Of a stretch of DNA of 64,000 nucleotides, positions 12,521 through 63,810 are shown one piece after another. Origin of the DNA: Alphaproteobacteria bacterium (lineage in GTDB: Bacteria; Pseudomonadota; Alphaproteobacteria; JAAXGF01). The first letter of the stretch is position 1, and each line of letters opens with the position of its first letter. The stretch lies in contig CAUVXB020000002.1 of the NCBI GenBank assembly GCA_963555825.3, forward strand, positions 1,312,001 through 1,376,000, read 5' to 3'. Made by a program: the position numbers and the translations under genes. The notes below the pieces were generated by a model. The model searched no databases, was not told the DNA's origin, and saw nothing but the letters and a program-made list of their open reading frames with translations.

Positions 12521-13972
12521 TACCAGTGAGCGCCTGAATTGACTCTCGGGATATTCATTGATGGCGGATGATGGCGGATTGTGATTCTATGGTCTCCCAC
12601 CAGATGTGGGGGATGTCATGGGATCAGCACTCAAGATACGGGATGATTTGACGCCTTTGGAGCTTCGGCGCTGGGCTCGCGTGGAATCGTACGGTCGAGC
12701 GGCGGCGCGGGCCTATGGGATCGCGAATGCTTTGGAGGAGATGCCCCGGGCTGATGCCGCGCGGCTTGCGGGGATGGATCGCCAAACGCTTCGCGACGCG
12801 GTTGTTCGTTACAATGCAAAGGGATTGGAGGGGCTTCACGACCGTCCAAAGGGCTACTCGCCGCGGCGGCTGACGGCAGACGAGGAAGCGGCGCTGGCGG
12901 CGGTCATCATCGCCGGGCCGGAGCCTGAGCGCGACGGGGTTTGCGCCTGGACCCGGGCCGATCTGTGCCGCTGGCTGGAGGAGCGCTTCGCCAAGACCTA
13001 CCACCCCTCGAGCATGACCCGGGTTCTACGGCGGATGGGATTTTCCCGCCATGGATCGCCAAACGCTTCGCGACGCGGTTGTTCGTTACAATGCAAAGGG
13101 ATTGGAGGGGCTTCACGACCGTCCAAAGGGCTACTCGCCGCGGCGGCTGACGGCAGACGAGGAAGCGGCGCTGGCGGCGGTCATCATCGCCGGGCCGGAG
13201 CCTGAGCGCGACGGGGTTTGCGCCTGGACCCGGGCCGATCTGTGCCGCTGGCTGGAGGAGCGCTTCGCCAAGACCTACCACCCCTCGAGCATGACCCGGG
13301 TTCTACGGCGGATGGGATTTTCCCGCCAGAAGGCGCGCCCGAGCCACCCGCGAAGGGACGCCGAAGCGCAGGAGCGCTTCAAAAAAGGGGGCTTCGCGAC
13401 ATCCTGAAGGCGACCGCCGCGGCGCATCCCGACAAGCGCCTACAGCTGTGGTTTCAGGATGAAGCGCGCGTCGGCAACAAGGGCCGGGTGTGTCACCGGT
13501 GGTGGCCCAGGGGCGAGCGTGCCCCCGGGACGCGTCAAATCGGCTACCAGTGGGCCTACATCTTCTCCGCCGTGCGCCCGGACACCGGCGACGACGTCAC
13601 CCTGGTGATGCCGAGCGTCAATGCCAAGGTCATGGACCTGTTTCTCGCACACTTCGCCGATACCCTGGACCAGGATGCGCACGCCGTCATGATGTGCGAC
13701 GGCGCCGGTTGGCACGACGAGCGCGCCCTCACCGTCCCCGACAACGTCACCTTGGCGCTGTTGCCGCCTTACAGTCCCGAACTCAACCCCGTCGAGCGGG
13801 TTTGGCTCTACCTACGCGAACGCTTCCTATCGCTCCGCGTCCTCGACGACACCGAGGCCATCATCGACGCCTGTTGCCAAGCATGGATCGACCTCATCGC
13901 AGAACCGGATCGTATGCGAACCCTCTGCGCCTATCCATGGATCATGAAGGTGATTTCATAGGCTCACTGGTA
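12521..13972 (+). mobile_element. IS630-family insertion sequence with an internal 277-bp tandem duplication
   Basis: TIR TACCAGTGAGC / GCTCACTGGTA; TAA on both sides; 12774-13050 repeated at 13051-13327. Confidence 0.9.
12618..13961 (+). pseudogene. IS630 transposase (HTH + DDE), with a frameshift site and disruption by the internal duplication
   Basis: FQDEAR, DGAGWH, LPPYSPELNPVE; A6G5 slippery run at 13381-13391. Confidence 0.85.
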
Positions 13973-58360: not shown

Positions 58361-59275
58361 TCACGCCCCTGCGTGAGTCCGCCGATATGTCAGGCGCTTG
58401 CCGGTGATACCGCGTAGCGCCTCTGTGGCGCGTTCGGCGTCCATCACGTCGCGCGTGTTGTAGCGGAAGTCGAACTCGCCGAGATAGCGCTTGAGGTGCT
58501 TCTGGCTGACGTGCTGGTACACGCCATTGATGCCGCGCTTCATGATCTAAAAATAGTTCTCGACGGTGTTGGTGTGCCAGAACTTGCCGCGCACATACTC
58601 GTTAATCGAGTGATTGACGTGACCGTGGCCCGCGAACTCGCGCCCGACCTTGATGTACTGGCCGGCTTCATCCGTCATCAGGTATGACTTGCGGTCGATC
58701 TGGGTAACGAGGATGGGGCGTAGCGTCTTGGCGTTGACGCCAGGGACGTGGAACGAATGAACGCGACCCTCGCGCTCGACCAGTGCGAACACGGCCTCTT
58801 TCTTGGGCGGGGGTCCATAGGCGCTGTTCCTGGCCTTGCCGCCGACGAACGTCTCATCGGCCTCGACAACCTTGTTCTCGCCACCGACAGGGCCGGACAG
58901 GTCGGGGTTGTCGCGCATGGCTTCACGAATGCGATGCGCCATGAACCACGCGGTCTTGTACGTGACGCCCAGCATCCTATGAAGCTGGTGCGCCGACATG
59001 CCTTTCTTGCTCGCACAGATCAGGTGATTGGCGAGCAGCCACTTATGAAGCGGAACCTTGGAACGCTCGAACAACGTGCCGACAGTCACGGTGAACTGCT
59101 TGCGGCAGTCGGCGCAGAACCACAGACCGGGACGTGCCGACTTGCCCTTGATGCGATGCGCGTTATCAATGACGCCGCAGTGCGGGCAGATCGGGCCGTC
59201 AGGCCAGCGAATAGCCTCTAGATGCTTGCGAGCGGCGTTGACGTCGTTGAAGCGTTTGGCGGTTATGTCGTACAT
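58361..59275 (-). pseudogene. IS1595-family transposase with an in-frame TAG at 58547-58549
   Basis: CPHC..C..C Zn ribbon, VEADET, MTDE, VNHS, HTNTVENYF*IMKRG, YL.EFDFRYN; terminal GGCGACTATATAC at 59338. Confidence 0.9.
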
Positions 59276-59338
59276 GGCGCATCTCCTTGCTATCTATAAG
59301 GTAATGCGTCCTGTGCGTTTGTCAAGTATATAGTCGCC

Positions 59339-60421
59339 CTTGGTAGGGCGCGACAGGTTGGTGACGATGAAACCGACACGGGGAACCAGGTCGCCGGGGT
59401 GCCACTCCACTTTGGCCACGACACGGCGCTTCTTGTTCCACGATCCGGCCTGATAGCTGAAGCTGGCGTGGAAACGGCGAACATGGTCGGGCGGGCGACC
59501 GACAGGTCGCGTAAGCAGATGGGCAATGTTCCGCTGGAGAATCACGTTCGCTTTGAGGCGGATGACGTAGAGTAATCCCTCAGCTTCGAGATATTCGTAT
59601 ATCTCCGGTGAGGCGAAGGCGGCATCGCCACGAAAATACAGCCGCAGCTTCCTTTCCTTATAGCGCATCACCACCGGCTCCAGAACATTCCGCCACCGTC
59701 GGCACTGTGAACATTACCGGGGCGCAGGGAACATCTCTCCAAGTCGCCGAACTGGTTGAACACGAACAGCGGATGATAGCAGGAACACCCGAAGTGCCCG
59801 TTGTAGGCCGTGCCCTCCTGATCGCCATGGGTCGGGCTGACGGAGCTATCCATGTCGAGAATGATCATATTCGGCGGATGGCGGTCATGAACCTTGTCGA
59901 TCCACACCCCGTTCATGTCGGCCAAGGCTTCAACGTTCTCGTCGGTGGCCAATAGCTCCGTCTCGAAGCGTCCCATCTGGCTGGTGGAAGCGGCCTGTCT
60001 TTCGATGGCCTTGCCGCCGACAATCCAGCGCATGGCGGGATCACGACCCAGACGATCGGCATCGTTCACATCGTCATAGCCGCCAAGACGGCCAAAGACG
60101 GACTGAAGGAACTGCTCCGTTATGCCGTGCCATCCGTTCTTGCCGGTACGGCTGTCGTGGAAAACACCCTCGGCCATCTCAGTCAGGCCGAGGGCATCGT
60201 CAAGCTCCCGGTAGGCGAGCAACCCGGCATCAGAGGTGATCTTGGAACCGTGGAATTCAAGCTTCAAGCGACGGTCAAAAACGACCCGAAGGCACCCCTG
60301 TTTCGATTCACCCATCGGGTGTGCCATATCCGCCGCTCCATGCATGCTACAACTTCATGATTCTTATAGCAGAATAGCCTTCTCGCCGCACTGAATATCG
60401 ACGCTACTTGGGAAATGCGGG
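59339..60421 (-). mobile_element. IS1380-family element, 5' part only (frameshifted near 59690, truncated by IS1595)
   Basis: ITSDAGLL, LDMDS, YHPL, RGDAAF; end resembling CCCGCATTTCCC near 60421. Confidence 0.85.
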
Positions 60422-60475
60422 ATGAAGATGTTACCGAGTTCTCAATGCCTCGAAAGTCCGCTTCGGGTCCAGACT

Positions 60476-61084
60476 GTTCTCTAACTCGGGGGTTGGTTGT
60501 CAAGCTCTCCGTGACGTACCTGCCGGGTTCACTGTTCTCTCCGCGGTAGGGGCTCGGCCCTCCGCATGATGGCGTTGGAGGACGTTGGCGGATCAATGTG
60601 TGAAGCGCGCTTGCCTCGGTGAGGCATCGCAAAGCCTGGATCGATCTCGCCGACGCCGCCGTCCCGACAGGGACATCGGTTCTCTAACTCGGGGGTTGGT
60701 TGTCAAGCTCTCCGTGACGTACCTGCCGGGTTCACTGTTCTCTCCGCGGTAGGGGCTCGGCCCTCCGCATGATGGCGTTGGAGGACGTTGGCGGATCAAT
60801 GTGTGAAGCGCGCTTGCCTCGGTGAGGCATCGCAAAGCCTGGATCGATCTCGCCGACGCCGCCGTCCCGACAGGGACATCGGTTCTCTAACTCGGGGGTT
60901 GGTTGTCAAGCTCTCCGTGACGTACCTGCCGGGTTCACTGTTCTCTCCGCGGTAGGGGCTCGGCCCTCCGCATGATGGCGTTGGAGGACGTTGGCGGATC
61001 AATGTGTGAAGCGCGCTTGCCTCGGTGAGGCATCGCAAAGCCTGGATCGATCTCGCCGACGCCGCCGTCCCGACAGGGACATCG
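60476..61084 (-). repeat. Three identical 203-bp tandem copies of the IS110 3' non-coding region
   Basis: Units start at 60476, 60679 and 60882; GTTC microhomology at the junctions. Confidence 0.95.
60882..61084 (-). ncRNA. Putative bridge/seek RNA of IS110 (also copies at 60476 and 60679)
   Basis: Loop segments match the target (CCAGGCT, TTCACACA) and the donor junction (ACGCCAT, AGAGAACA). Confidence 0.75.
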
Positions 61085-61119
61085 GTTCCGCTCTCGCGGA
61101 ATGCTTGGACGTTGTTTCC

Positions 61120-62151
61120 CTATGCGGCCGCCTCCTTGGTTGACCAGATGAAGTCCGTTCCATCACGCCACATGCGATGGAGGATGACCGCCAGCTTCCG
61201 TGCCACGGCGATCTTGGCCTTCTTGAAGCCGATGCGTTTCCACAACCTGTGACCCCAGGCCTTGAGCGCGCACCATCGCGGCACCCGGGTGAGCAGCACG
61301 CCGGCCGCCTCGAAGAGGTAGGTCCTGAGCATTCGATCGCCGCATTTGGAGATCCGCCCCGTCCAATCGACCTCGCCGGAAGCATGGCGGCGCGGCGTCA
61401 GCCCGATGTACGCGCCGACACTCCGGGAACGTCGGAAGCGGCTCGGCTCGTCGATCGCCGAGTGGAAGGCCAAGGCGGTGATCGGCCCGATGCCTGGAAC
61501 CGTCATGGAACGTCTGCTGTCCTCGTCGTTCCGCGCCAGGCCCAGCAGCTTGCGATAGAGCGCGGCGATCTCTCGGCCGACCTTCTCGCGGACTTCCAGA
61601 AGGGGCCGAACGGCCTCCGACAAAAGACCCTGCCCGCCAAGCAGCTCTTCGACCCGGCGACGGAAGACATTGCCGCCCGCCTTGCCGATGACGAGGCCGA
61701 GGTTCTTGAGCAAGCCACGGATCTGGTTCTCGAGATCACGCTTGATCTTGACCAACTGGGCCCGGCTGTTCAGGACGGCCCGTATCTCGTGGCACGCCAC
61801 GCTCTTGACTTGGACCTCCTTGTACCAACCGCACTGCATGATCCGCGCGATCCCGGCGGCATCGTTCCGGTCGCTCTTGTTGATCTGCATCGACAGCGCC
61901 GCCTTGGCATGACGCGCATCGATGCAGATCACCGGCAAGCCGAGCGCCCTGAGCTCATGCCACAGCCAGGTCGTCGTCGGACCGGTCTCCAGACCGATGC
62001 GCTTTGCGTGCGGCGCCGTTGTCCTGATATACGCCGCGATTGCCGCCGGCTCCGAGATCACCACGCCCTCGGACACGATCTCGCCGTTGTCATCGACCAC
62101 GCAGATCGAGGTCTCCTTGAGCGATACATCCATTCCAACATACAGTTCCAT
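61120..62151 (-). CDS. IS110-family recombinase/transposase (DEDD RuvC-like + Tnp)
   Basis: GMDVS, GLETG, KSDRNDA, VPGIG, GLTP...SG......ISKCG. Confidence 0.95.
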   Translation of the reverse strand: MELYVGMDVSLKETSICVVDDNGEIVSEGVVISEPAAIAAYIRTTAPHAKRIGLETGPTTTWLWHELRALGLPVICIDARHAKAALSMQINKSDRNDAAGIARIMQCGWYKEVQVKSVACHEIRAVLNSRAQLVKIKRDLENQIRGLLKNLGLVIGKAGGNVFRRRVEELLGGQGLLSEAVRPLLEVREKVGREIAALYRKLLGLARNDEDSRRSMTVPGIGPITALAFHSAIDEPSRFRRSRSVGAYIGLTPRRHASGEVDWTGRISKCGDRMLRTYLFEAAGVLLTRVPRWCALKAWGHRLWKRIGFKKAKIAVARKLAVILHRMWRDGTDFIWSTKEAAA

Positions 62152-62652
62152 AGCTGCTCTCCTGCTCTTTCAGTGTGCTCGCCCGGCCCATGCCGGTCGT
62201 TGCTACATTAAGGAGAGCAGTGCCCGATCCCCGAGTTACGCCATGTGTGAAAACGCCGGCGAATGCTACTAGCGAGGGAGTGTTCAGCATAATGTTCTAA
62301 ATCACCCTATTATAAGATGTTGATTTTGTTGAACTTGAAAATTCGAGAATCCAGAGAAAATCACGCCAAGAGCGCTCGGGAGCAGTTTTCACACAGCCTG
62401 GGTCAACAGCAGACCTCGGCGGCGTCATCACGCGGTGTCCGCTTTCGAGCGGTAAGCCGACGTCGAACGCCTTGTCCCGCGATCCAGCGTCTTTAAGGTC
62501 TGCTAACGAGCGGGAAGCGGACGCCGACGATCAGCCTCTCGTATGTCTGCTCATAGCCATCACCAGACATGCGGCATGCAGAGCGAGTTTGATTCGCGGG
62601 CCGGAACGGATATTCTGAGGCGCGGAACCAGTGGTCTTGCGGGGAACGTCCG

Positions 62653-63810
62653 ATGAAGACGTTCGTGCTTCCCGATCTCGGTGAGGGTCTGCACGAGGCG
62701 GAGATCGTCGCGTGGCACGTCAGCGCGGGCGACAGCGTCGTCGAGGACGACGTGATCGTCTCCGTCGAGACGGACAAGGCCGTGACCGAGGTGCCCGCCC
62801 CGTGGTCGGGGACGATCGCGCGGCTGTGCGCGGAGGTGGGCGACGTCATCAAGGTGGGCGACGCGATCGTCGCATACGCCGGCGACGACGACGACGATGG
62901 GGCCGTGCCGGAAGCGCGCCCGTCCGATGCGCGCTGGACGGTCGCCGGCGCCGGGACGCGCGTCGCCGCGCCGCAGCCGGGCGCGGGCGTCGCTGTCATG
63001 CCCGCCGTGCGGCTTCTTGCGGCAGAGTTCGACGTCGCGCTTGACGGTGTGACCGGCACCGGGCCCGACGGCGCGATCCTGGCGCGCGACGTCGCGCAAG
63101 CGGCCAAGACGCGCGCGACCCACGACACCGTTGCCGCCGGCGCCGAGCCGGGTGCCCCCGAGACGGTCGAGGAAGCGGCCGACTGGGAGCCACTGAGCGG
63201 GCCGCGCCGGACGATGGCGCGCAACATGGCGCGGGCGCATGCCGAGGTGGTTCCCGCCACGGTCCACGAGGAGGCGGACATCGGCGCGTGGGCTTCGGAC
63301 GAGGACGTGACGGTGAGGTTGGTCCGCGCGCTGTTGGCCGGCGTCGCCGCGGAACCGGCGCTCAATTGCTGGTTCGACGCGCAAAGAGGCCGCCTGGTGC
63401 ACGAGACGGTGGACGTCGGCATCGCGGTTGACACGCCGGCCGGCCTTTTTGTGCCGCCGCTTCGGGGCACCCAGGGCCTTGCCCCGAGCGCGCTGCGCGG
63501 CGAGCTGGACCGCCTCGTGTCGGGTGCGCGGAACCGTTCGCTTTCGGCGGGCGAGCTCAAGGGTGCGACGATCACGCTCAGCAACTATGGCGCCATTGCC
63601 GGGCTTCACGCGACGCCGGTCGTGATGCCGCCCCAGGTCGCGATCCTCGGCGCCGGCCGATCGCGCGCGCAGGTGATTGCCGGCGACGACGGGCCCGTCG
63701 TCGGCCGCGTGCTGCCACTATCGCTCAGCTACGACCATCGTGCCGTGACGGGCGGCGAGGCGGCCCGGTTCATCCGCGCCGTCGTCGCGGATCTGACAAT
63801 GGCGGACTAG
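62653..63810 (+). CDS. 2-oxoacid dehydrogenase E2 (dihydrolipoamide acyltransferase)
   Basis: LPDLGEGL, VETDKA lipoyl site, GTGPDGAI E3-binding motif, LSYDHR. Confidence 0.92.
   Translation: MKTFVLPDLGEGLHEAEIVAWHVSAGDSVVEDDVIVSVETDKAVTEVPAPWSGTIARLCAEVGDVIKVGDAIVAYAGDDDDDGAVPEARPSDARWTVAGAGTRVAAPQPGAGVAVMPAVRLLAAEFDVALDGVTGTGPDGAILARDVAQAAKTRATHDTVAAGAEPGAPETVEEAADWEPLSGPRRTMARNMARAHAEVVPATVHEEADIGAWASDEDVTVRLVRALLAGVAAEPALNCWFDAQRGRLVHETVDVGIAVDTPAGLFVPPLRGTQGLAPSALRGELDRLVSGARNRSLSAGELKGATITLSNYGAIAGLHATPVVMPPQVAILGAGRSRAQVIAGDDGPVVGRVLPLSLSYDHRAVTGGEAARFIRAVVADLTMAD

Follow-up and report, generated by a model that had tools for sequence, protein, structure and literature searches.

Three identical predicted guide-RNA genes stand behind the single recombinase gene of an IS1111-type IS110 element in the window, that is, the whole 64,000-nucleotide stretch of DNA that we analysed. 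Their array is most likely a by-product of one-ended, core-dependent action of the recombinase at the right-end (RE) junction, and not a purpose-built guide array, because right-end duplications recur, a rule on the core dinucleotide holds for them and their boundaries ignore the RNA. We put the probability of this reading at about one half.

Anatomy of the array

Tandem Repeats Finder returned a period of 203 with 3.0 copies, 100% matches and no indels (score 1226) at 60476-61088, and a script confirmed that the three units are identical letter for letter (Table 1). This upheld the count of exactly three given by a first-pass annotation of the sequence; chance cannot have produced three perfect 203-bp copies. 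The array begins 35 nt past the transposase stop codon, and its internal crossover site is the AC at 61085-61086, the final two bases of the 35-nt spacer. Just two pairs of the spacer hairpin enter the consensus RNA fold, with two-sided change in neither. At 1769 bp, the element is 2 x 203 bp longer than its single-unit form of 1363 bp; its left end, which the annotation had put at 62243, lies at 62244.

The features claimed for each unit are all present: a structured RNA, which is complete (unit nt 4-164) and has a full-length covariance-model score, the TTGACA box, CCCCGAGTTA as subterminal repeat and GAGTTAGAGAAC as terminus. The terminus of unit 3 adjoins the right target half. The GAAC microhomology that the annotation had placed at the junction was found as well, the internal sequence reading ...GCGGAAC^CGATG and the terminus ...AGAGAAC^CGATG (^ marks the breakpoint here and below). 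A consensus promoter scan of 60300-62400 gave no sigma-70-like site, a scan of the same region gave three terminator-like sites, and no promoter-like or terminator-like site was found within the units. The three guide-RNA genes are probably co-transcribed. A single contig of the RNA-library run X13 covers the region; a contig cannot show transcription.

Table 1. Coordinates of the element, its repeated units and its target, in positions of the window.
Feature	Position	Strand	Basis or remark
Whole IS1111-type IS110 element, right-end module triplicated	60476..62244	-	six genomic copies and empty target sites compared
Left end and 93-nt 5' non-coding region	62152..62244	-	same sequence in 7/7 left ends of the genome
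Left subterminal inverted repeat TAACTCGGGG	62229-62238	-	reverse complement of CCCCGAGTTA in the right end
Intact gene of the recombinase (transposase), 343 aa	61120..62151	-	PF01548 and PF02371
35-nt spacer past the stop codon, with hairpin TTCCGCGAGAGCGGAA	61085..61119	-	
Unit 1, 203 bp	60882..61084	-	RNA core = unit nt 4-164 (61081-60921); covariance model 174.3 bits
Unit 1, right-target guide	61039-61047	-	
Unit 1, left-target guide and core	61004-61011	-	
Unit 1, right-donor guide	60975-60981	-	
Unit 1, left-donor guide and core	60940-60947	-	
Unit 1, TTGACA box	60904-60909	-	
Unit 1, right-end terminus	60882-60893	-	
Unit 2, same sequence as unit 1	60679..60881	-	RNA core 60878-60718
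Unit 3, same sequence as unit 1	60476..60678	-	RNA core 60675-60515
Right target half (AGTCTGGACCC...)	60456..60475	-	complementary to right-target guide
MITE, ~160 bp, its terminal inverted repeat being the insertion target	62245..62405	.	
Left target half and AC core	62245-62257	.	within the MITE
Unoccupied target copy (GTTTTCACAC^AGCCTGGGTC)	62385-62404	.	within the MITE

The element and its guide RNA

The annotation had correctly called an intact IS110 recombinase. The 343-aa product matches PF01548 (DEDD_Tnp_IS110, 1.7e-16) and PF02371 (Transposase_20, 1.8e-22), and its C-terminal domain matches those of IS621 (8wt6; E 3e-9, LTPRR..SG motif included) and of the ISCro4 recombinase (E 7e-9). 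In the single-unit element the longer non-coding side is the 3' one (238 nt vs 93 nt 5'). Subterminal inverted repeats, at nt 7-16 of the left end and matched in the right end, each lie 6 nt from the end. Insertion is sequence-specific, target duplication is limited to the common core dinucleotide, and the AC core is kept across 60 relatives. By its recombinase domains, 3' non-coding region, inverted repeats, target and two-loop RNA the element belongs to the IS1111 group.

The 3' non-coding region is predicted to encode a bridge/seek RNA of ~160 nt in which the target-binding loop precedes the donor-binding loop. Guide-to-flank covariation was scored on 60 distinct relative sequences. The right-target guide scored 7.32 of 10 against its own right flank, compared with 5.35 +/- 0.19 when flanks were shuffled among loci, and the left-target guide 7.47 compared with 5.94 +/- 0.15, values reached by 0/2000 shuffles in either case. 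The consensus fold comprises 43 pairs with 98.6% of cells paired; two-sided changes occur at 8 pairs, against 2.8 in shuffles (0/500) and 0-6 with partners slid, and conserved G-U pairs are consistent with an RNA on the transposase-sense strand. The co-variation and the compensatory changes agree with the annotation's assignment of the element to the IS1111 type with a 3' guide RNA. Rfam, searched in evalue mode over 59800-62800, gave no match to the RNA.

On sequence comparison, the window element and its five sister copies are inserted in the terminal inverted repeat of a MITE or of an IS1182-like element (PF13751, PF05598), the MITE terminal repeat also forming the ends of the latter. All six copies are inserted at ...TTTTYACAC^...^AG(C/T)CT..., followed by GGACCC in five and by AGTGTC in copy D, and dozens of empty target sites are present in the genome at IS and MITE ends. 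IS4321/IS5075 target the terminal repeats of another mobile element.

Right-end duplications recur in the genome

Comparison of the element's six genomic copies, the window copy included, revealed RE-anchored tandem duplications in 4/6, of 23, 122, 203 and 630 bp (two extra units in the 203-bp case), each stopping exactly at the right-end terminus. They were carried by 3/3 copies with an intact transposase and 1/3 broken copies, small numbers in both classes. Extra complete RNA genes were present in 2/6 copies (three in A, the array described above, and two in B), and the 23-bp unit of copy D contains the terminus only. A full terminus closes every unit, and no left-end-like box stands at the unit 5' boundary. 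AC precedes each internal breakpoint of this family, a dinucleotide found at 65/1362 positions (4.8%). Beside copy D lies an old left-end-only fragment, too diverged for its breakpoint to be placed; a right-end-like motif at C2:2647714 was set aside as a chance match.

A second IS1111-type element of the same genome, with a transposase ~31% identical and a terminal TG, bears right-end-anchored extra units in 4/5 copies, including ~3 copies of the entire 3' non-coding region at C2:2097664-2098631. Of its different internal breakpoints with an exact match to the parent, 7/7 follow TG (7.0% of positions), and these lie 24-872 bp from the end. Together with one junction from another genome, eleven junctions from these two elements were scored; in 12/12 distinct junctions the partner of the RE terminus is an internal site that follows a copy of the element's own terminal dinucleotide (AC or TG), which bears out the annotation's suggestion that the right end had been joined to an internal site.

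Such anchoring bears on a generic origin, in which replication slippage or unequal crossing-over made the tandem duplication and the recombinase was uninvolved. Short junction microhomology is typical of such events, and homologous recombination alone would suffice to pass from two to three copies. However, the duplication ends exactly at the element terminus in 12/12 events, in two unrelated elements and one foreign genome, and 7/14 of the genome's tandem repeats with a period >= 100 and >= 95% matches adjoin IS110-family transposase genes. We therefore consider a generic origin very unlikely.

Proposed origin

From the observed anatomy, guide positions, recurrent right-end anchoring and core rule we infer recombinase catalysis, a sister-duplex partner and a route to the third copy, as follows. 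The recombinase would act on the right-end junction (RE-AC-flank) and carry out strand exchange with an internal site 203 bp upstream that shares just the AC core dinucleotide. This partner site would probably lie on the sister duplex, and the exchange would duplicate the intervening segment in place. Such an event would fit the 'half-match', or one-ended, left-donor anchored reaction known from accounts of IS621 and of expanded IS110 loci. The third copy could then arise through a repeat of this reaction, now at the RE-AC-unit junction just formed, or through unequal homologous crossing-over between units. That the recombinase made the junctions is suggested by the anchoring and the core rule. 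No reciprocal deletion product, in which an internal AC of a truncated element would meet the right flank directly, was present among the BLAST hits.

The guide does not obviously specify the partner. At internal sites A, B and D the best guide-arm match is 3 of 7, a level reached by 89% of internal AC sites, and the right-donor arm matches 0 of 7 at the unit start (site A). Only site C matches a guide arm, at 7 of 7, because its DNA encodes the left-target guide. Since no guide arm matches A, B or D better than a typical AC site, guide pairing at the partner, if required, is not evident. The duplicated span is below 900 bp (23-872 bp) in 12/12 events, a bias towards short distances that free choice among core sites does not predict.

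These properties are also those of a template switch, in which the recombinase would merely nick the top strand at the right-end junction and the freed 3' end (...AC) would re-anneal through microhomology to the template slightly upstream and be extended, so that the segment is copied again with no recombinase-mediated strand exchange at the internal site. A common 2-nt terminal microhomology is equally expected from such nick-primed switching, which also accounts for the right-end anchoring, for the missing guide-arm match at 3/4 internal sites and for the short distances. The microhomology sometimes exceeds the core as well (GAAC at A, AAC at the foreign locus L063, up to 9 nt at a single site of the second element). 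Against this, the minimum common sequence is exactly the 2-nt core and never 0-1 nt (12/12), a sample too small to decide, and the ectopic-core reactions described in the published accounts are recombinase exchanges (PMC12288879; 10.64898/2026.08.31.748434). We regard template switching as an unlikely alternative.

Copy number of the units

All public runs were searched as Logan contigs, which show presence, not absence. In run X4 a 56-nt unitig (60653-60708, no mismatches) extends over the unit-to-unit junction with 26 + 30 nt on its sides, under the 31-nt bridging rule. The 31-mers that occur at this junction alone are exactly those it covers; its depth is 321, and that of the unit body ~720. 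In X1 and in X13 one contig leaves the transposase gene, crosses a single unit and reaches the terminus unbranched, with no tandem junction, and among the pieces listed for run X3 none was bridging. The count of three is taken from the assembly, and a unitig of one public run contains the junction itself.

An assembly artefact, with a single unit at the true locus, would agree with the single-unit path of X1 and X13 and with a copy number that lacks spanning reads. Yet the assembly, for all the dozens of repeated elements in the genome, consists of 2 contigs (6.04 Mb in total), the junction-specific 31-mers occur in X4, and other copies carry different, equally precise right-end duplications, so that an artefact seems extremely improbable.

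The X4 junction is equally expected from a free 203-nt circle, and is compatible with a route in which the unit was excised as a small circle and re-entered the right-end junction, through the recombinase or homologous recombination, one unit per cycle. A minicircle route has been proposed for the ssr9/MITEPpu9 module of ISPpu9, which makes module-only minicircles and has tandem ssr9 copies in some strains (PMC12288879); a solo diverged RNA and right-end unit exists in the present genome too. However, copy D and the second element have units of 23-26 bp that cannot circularise but nonetheless follow the same rule, and the array unit offers neither a left-end-like box at its 5' boundary nor, at site A, a right-donor arm match. 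We judge this route improbable.

Related loci and the function of the array

Right-end duplications are rare elsewhere. The one case among 70 evaluable related loci (1/70), L063, lies in another genome beside a transposase 71% identical and is a 142-bp duplication at ..AAC^; some property of this genome or of its assembly type therefore matters. None of 79 related loci (0/79) has two full RNA copies, L063 having one extra partial hit. A search for the array DNA in 40 relatives found no close relative with this element, and in a sample of 150 genomes from the class the covariance model gave a single hit in each of 3 genomes and no array.

Selection could in principle keep the array as a functional multi-copy guide cassette, if more RNA promoted transposition or spare copies diverged. 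A whole structured RNA with a full-length covariance-model score lies in each 203-bp unit, extra complete RNA genes recur in copies A and B, and the second element has its own ~3 copies of the 3' non-coding region. But the units are 100% identical and hence without divergence, as the annotation had itself remarked; the scan gave no promoter-like or terminator-like site within them; two full RNA copies are absent from all 79 related loci; and boundaries are arbitrary in the sister duplications. Unit boundaries are set without regard to the RNA: units of 122 bp and 142 bp begin inside it, and the 23-, 122- and 630-bp sister duplications and the 142-bp one of L063 cut through or ignore it. The annotation's one-recombinase, multi-guide array thus finds little room as a functional design, and we give selection only slight credence. 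A CRISPR- or TIGR-like multi-guide array was rejected, since the three units carry identical guides and the architecture is not conserved among the 79 loci.

Comparison with known systems

The one-ended reading places the array beside phenomena described for other IS110 elements. Tandem accumulation beside IS110 transposases has been read as half-match, one-sided recombination resolved in place, so the array phenomenon is already reported in general form (10.64898/2026.08.14.744561). By the measures of that preprint the present locus is an expansion (>= 2 adjacent same-strand units of >= 50 bp and >= 95% identity beside a transposase gene). Its boundary is of the left-donor-only kind, with the right-end terminus kept in each unit and a right-donor match of 0 of 7 at the unit start. 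The available text of the preprint contains 0 occurrences of IS1111 or of repeated bridge-RNA copies (10.64898/2026.08.14.744561); in contrast to the cases in that text, the unit here is the guide-RNA gene, and 11 distinct base-resolved junctions from one genome have just the core dinucleotide in common. For IS621, recombination requires no more than the core and a single matching arm, and a category of sites without any arm match exists too; the available portions of that work deal with excision and off-target insertion, in vitro or in E. coli, and not with natural duplication in place (10.64898/2026.08.31.748434).

ISPpu9 of Pseudomonas putida has been shown to recombine at core dinucleotides in ectopic positions and to have tandem duplicates of its module, and ISPpu9/MITEPpu9 resembles the present element in its tandem-duplicable 3' RNA module; ssr9 differs in that it is not a bridge RNA and is bounded by both element ends (A'/B' boxes) (PMC12288879). 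A MITEPpu9-like mobile module was rejected here, the unit having a right end only and no left-end-like 5' boundary. With the IS1111-group seekRNA elements ISEc11, IS4321/IS5075, ISKpn4 and ISPa11 our element shares a DEDD-type recombinase, subterminal inverted repeats, a long guide-encoding non-coding region downstream of the gene and sequence-specific insertion; the RNA and right-end module differs in its three tandem copies, the word 'tandem' being absent from that paper's main text (PMC11187229). Like the bridge RNA of IS621, the RNA has two loops, target-binding before donor-binding, with arms that end in the core dinucleotide (PMC13626964). The present RNA lies 3' of the gene and its core is AC. 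For IS621, a bridge-RNA gene 5' of the recombinase gene and a CT core have been reported (work of Durrant et al. 2024 and Hiraizumi et al. 2024), which sets the two elements apart on both counts.

Bridge recombinases are under development as programmable genome editors. The junctions described here form a natural, base-resolved series of candidate one-ended reactions in which two different IS1111-type elements would have used their right (left-donor) end. They bear on a question raised in a 2026 preprint, namely what is recognised at repeat boundaries without a guide match (10.64898/2026.08.14.744561), and yield the rule of core plus proximity, which can be tested and which matters for the off-target and on-site rearrangements that bridge editors may cause. 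In IS1111-type elements one-ended events would multiply the guide-RNA gene itself, raw material for any natural multi-guide system.

A more speculative proposal, which we hold to be doubtful, is that the right-end module is a semi-autonomous, amplifiable guide cassette, copied in place and also found solo, whose guide pool may diverge and retarget the recombinase in trans.

The solo diverged RNA and right-end unit lies at G000:C2:2842355-2842555. It has no transposase gene nearby, and its right-target guide fits its own flank.

Structure of the array and of the element

A repeat scan and a script comparison agreed that, as the first-pass annotation had it, three exact, letter-identical units lie behind an intact IS110 recombinase gene (see table), and the guides, as also stated there, show no diversification. 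The gene product contains two IS110-family Pfam domains (PF01548 at 1.7e-16, PF02371 at 1.8e-22), and its C-terminal domain aligns with the solved recombinases IS621 (E 3e-9) and ISCro4 (E 7e-9). Units meet at the GAAC originally reported: the terminus ...AGAGAAC runs into CGATG..., which within the element is preceded by ...GCGGAAC.

The genome of the window (two contigs, C1 and C2; 6.04 Mb) holds six full copies of the element, here called A (the window copy) to F. Comparison of the six with empty sites defined an element of 1363 bp, running from ATGGCG... to ...GAGTTAGAGAAC, with subterminal inverted repeats of 10 bp and non-coding regions of 93 nt (5′) and 238 nt (3′). The location first assigned to the window copy held, its left end shifting by one base to 62244. 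All six copies are inserted in one orientation between ...TTTTYACAC and AG(C/T)CT..., beyond which the right flank reads GGACCC in five copies and AGTGTC in copy D. Dozens of other mobile elements of this genome also end in the target sequence, and one of them encodes an IS1182-like transposase (PF13751 and PF05598). At the window locus the insertion lies in the terminal repeat of a MITE, whose opposite end is a target copy that is still empty. Terminal repeats of other transposons are known targets of IS1111-group elements, for example IS4321/IS5075, and the element has each defining feature of that group that was tested. The surroundings of the array are a cluster of decaying mobile elements; an IS1595-like transposase ORF adjoins the two ORFs into which an IS1380-like gene (PF13701) is split.

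Public sequencing runs, all in the form of short-read contigs, were queried with 201 bases centred on the unit-to-unit junction. Run X4 contains a 56-nt unitig (60653-60708) without mismatches, at a depth of 321 vs ~720 for the unit body. The span of this unitig is exactly that of the 31-mers specific to the tandem junction, which argues against an assembly artefact; its flanks of 26 + 30 nt lie under the 31-nt bridging rule. A free circle would produce the same junction, and in runs X1 and X13 one contig each passes unbranched from the gene through a single unit to the terminus. No bridging piece was present among the pieces listed for X3. We consider an artefact unlikely, though the exact copy number may differ.

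Features of the array, the two elements and their surroundings (G000, genome of the window)
Feature	Location	Strand	Description
Tandem array	window 60476-61088		period 203, 3.0 copies, 100% matches, no indels
Recombinase ORF	window 61120-62151	minus	343 aa, intact, 35 nt upstream of array
MITE	window 62245-62405		~160 bp; terminal repeat is insertion target of window copy
IS1595-like ORF	window 58547-59275		
IS1380-like ORFs	window 59294-59674, 59668-60345		
Copy A duplication			two extra units, 203 bp each
Copy B duplication			630 bp, extends into transposase gene
Copy C duplication			122 bp
Copy D duplication			23 bp
Copies E and F	G000:C2:2016856-2018216, C2:3487056-3488416		different sites
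Second-element arrays	G000:C2:2097664-2099391, C2:1402803-1404746, C1:169596-170187, C1:2233729-2233920		outside window

Each unit contains a complete guide RNA

The RNA had no family match in Rfam. From 79 related loci (transposase identity 67-90%), an alignment was made of 60 distinct 3′ non-coding regions and their flanks. One 10-nt segment complements the right flank, scoring on average 7.32/10 (vs 5.35 ± 0.19 for shuffled flanks), and a second is the same as the left flank followed by the AC core (7.47 vs 5.94 ± 0.15); neither value was reached in 2000 shuffles (0/2000 each), although flanks were exchanged among loci that are related, so that these counts overstate independence. In addition, ACGCCAT in the RNA is complementary to the left end of the element, and GAGAGAAC equals its right end. 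The consensus fold, derived from 36 sequences, comprises 43 pairs (98.6% of cells paired); two-sided changes occurred in 8 pairs, vs 2.8 ± 0.9 upon shuffling (0/500) and 0-6 with partners slid. Closing stem, target-binding loop and donor-binding loop follow in that order, which is the layout of bridge/seek RNAs, and conserved G-U pairs, of which there are many, are consistent with the transposase-sense strand.

The RNA core occupies nt 4-164 of the unit, followed by ~40 nt of right-end terminus, and a complete RNA is thus present in each 203-bp unit. Using a covariance model built from the alignment, we found nine full RNA genes in the whole genome, three in copy A, two in copy B and one in each of copies C-F, along with one partial and one diverged solo match. 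The solo RNA and its right-end unit (G000:C2:2842355-2842555, 106.6 bits) have no transposase homolog within about 3 kb by tblastn, and their right-target guide is unlike that of the window and fits its own right flank.

Right-end duplications recur with different lengths

Comparison of other genomic copies revealed right-end duplications of different lengths, so the window array has counterparts. In four of the six copies a tandem duplication ends exactly at the right-end terminus (see table); none was found in copies E and F. AC, with which the element ends, precedes all four internal breakpoints (sites A-D), and accounts for 65/1362 positions (4.8%). Among related loci, one of 70 evaluable (L063, from another genome) shows a 142-bp right-end duplication immediately after ...AAC; the nine loci removed from the 79 comprised six without a recognisable right end and three with too little downstream sequence.

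The transposase gene is intact in copies A, B and D, carries a 34-bp insertion at codon ~16 in copy C, and has its frame broken by a common 2-bp deletion in copies E and F. Duplications are therefore found in 3/3 intact vs 1/3 broken copies, too few for a conclusion on cis action. Since E and F share their deletion at different sites, a defective copy has apparently moved in trans.

Several fragments were observed alongside. The 34-bp insert of copy C (G000:C1:935246-935279) has 40 exact occurrences genome-wide, on both contigs and both strands, and could represent either a footprint or a very small repeat of high copy number. Copy D sits in a MITE whose opposite terminal repeat carries a left-end-only fragment of a related element (G000:C1:1664415-1664674; first 60 nt identical, rest diverged). 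An old left-end fragment beside copy D contains a different ~40-bp insertion at nearly the same place as that of copy C. Elsewhere, a 5′-truncated right-end fragment of 86 bp (G000:C2:840560-840645; 91% identical) has a different flank. A 282-bp x 2.7 array at locus L070 of another genome (positions 280-1041, 99% identity) lies upstream of a related transposase gene, and its units terminate in ...CTCGAAC.

The units do not behave as a guide array

In the window, one recombinase gene is followed by three guide genes, which are probably co-transcribed. The initial proposal of a functional multi-guide array nevertheless found no support, given identical units, boundaries that ignore the RNA and a single RNA in relatives. 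Unit boundaries cut the RNA or leave it out in copies C, D and L063. Each of the 79 related loci has one RNA match (two clipped by the sequence end), L063 having one partial match in addition, and the covariance model detected single matches in three genomes of a 150-genome sample of the class. Scanning the units found no promoter-like or terminator-like site inside them; the region is also covered by a contig from an RNA library, although contigs are no proof of transcription. Guide arrays combine different guides with a conserved architecture, whereas the window array has neither.

A second element follows the same rule

The whole-genome repeat scan identified a second IS1111-type element of 1362 bp, with a 340-aa transposase ~31% identical, a TG terminus and subterminal repeats of its own. 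Extra units anchored at the right end, nested and 24-872 bp long, occur in four of its five copies (see table). Of the 20 distinct sequences found after a right end, seven are exact matches to the parent element from their first base onwards, with breakpoints 24, 66, 94, 134, 138, 296 and 872 bp from the end, and TG (7.0% of positions) precedes 7/7. Two sequences matching only after a 2-nt skip were left unscored; the eleven without an exact internal match were five outer flanks plus diverged units. The array at G000:C2:2097664-2098631 (296 bp x 3.3) covers the entire 257-nt 3′ non-coding region in ~3 copies. Genome-wide, 7/14 tandem repeats (period at least 100, at least 95% matches) adjoin IS110-family genes. 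One perfect repeat of the window (12774-13328; 277 bp x 2.0, 100%) lies away from any IS110 gene.

Origin of the array

In all 12 junctions scored, which come from two unrelated elements and a foreign genome, the right-end terminus is fused to an internal occurrence of the dinucleotide that ends the element in question, a core rule that bears out the earlier proposal of a right end joining an internal site. We infer a recombinase-dependent, one-ended reaction at the right-end junction (left donor, core, right target). The partner of this junction would be an internal core site close by, in the simplest case on the sister duplex, and the exchange would duplicate the intervening segment.

Such a one-ended reaction fits three preprints. 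The first describes 'half-match' recombination, for which the core and one arm are enough, and also lists a site class without arm match (10.64898/2026.08.31.748434); the second describes transfer of a left-donor/right-target junction to a new site (10.1101/2025.10.25.684509). In the third, on local tandem expansion, unit boundaries retain almost only left-donor matches, and left-donor-initiated reactions 'resolved in place' are speculated upon (10.64898/2026.08.14.744561); the window array has the features described there, with left-donor-only boundaries. For ISPpu9, PMC12288879 reports recombination at ectopic core dinucleotides and tandem duplication of the 3′ RNA module. MITEPpu9-like modules have both ends present, unlike the window array. 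'IS1111' and 'bRNA copies' are absent from the main text of 10.64898/2026.08.14.744561, as is 'tandem' from that of PMC11187229. The present case adds a compact natural junction series and shows that, in elements of the IS1111 type, it is the guide gene that becomes multiplied.

Guide-arm matches reached 7/7 at site C, because the DNA of this site encodes the left-target guide, and 3/7 at sites A, B and D, a level attained by 89% of internal AC sites. This argues against a simple guide-directed choice of the internal site, as the arm matches at A, B and D do not exceed those of a typical AC site. The duplicated span was <900 bp in every event. The junction series suggests that a core dinucleotide close by is all that is required of the internal partner. 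Identical junctions would be expected from a nick-primed template switch, which would also account for both the proximity and the missing arm matches; for these reasons we give it some weight, while judging it unlikely. Minicircle re-entry is more doubtful still, as it cannot account for units of 23-26 bp, and generic slippage would not be expected to anchor every event at the element end. The third unit, following an initial one-ended duplication, could have arisen by the same reaction or by ordinary unequal crossing-over, since the sequence fits either.
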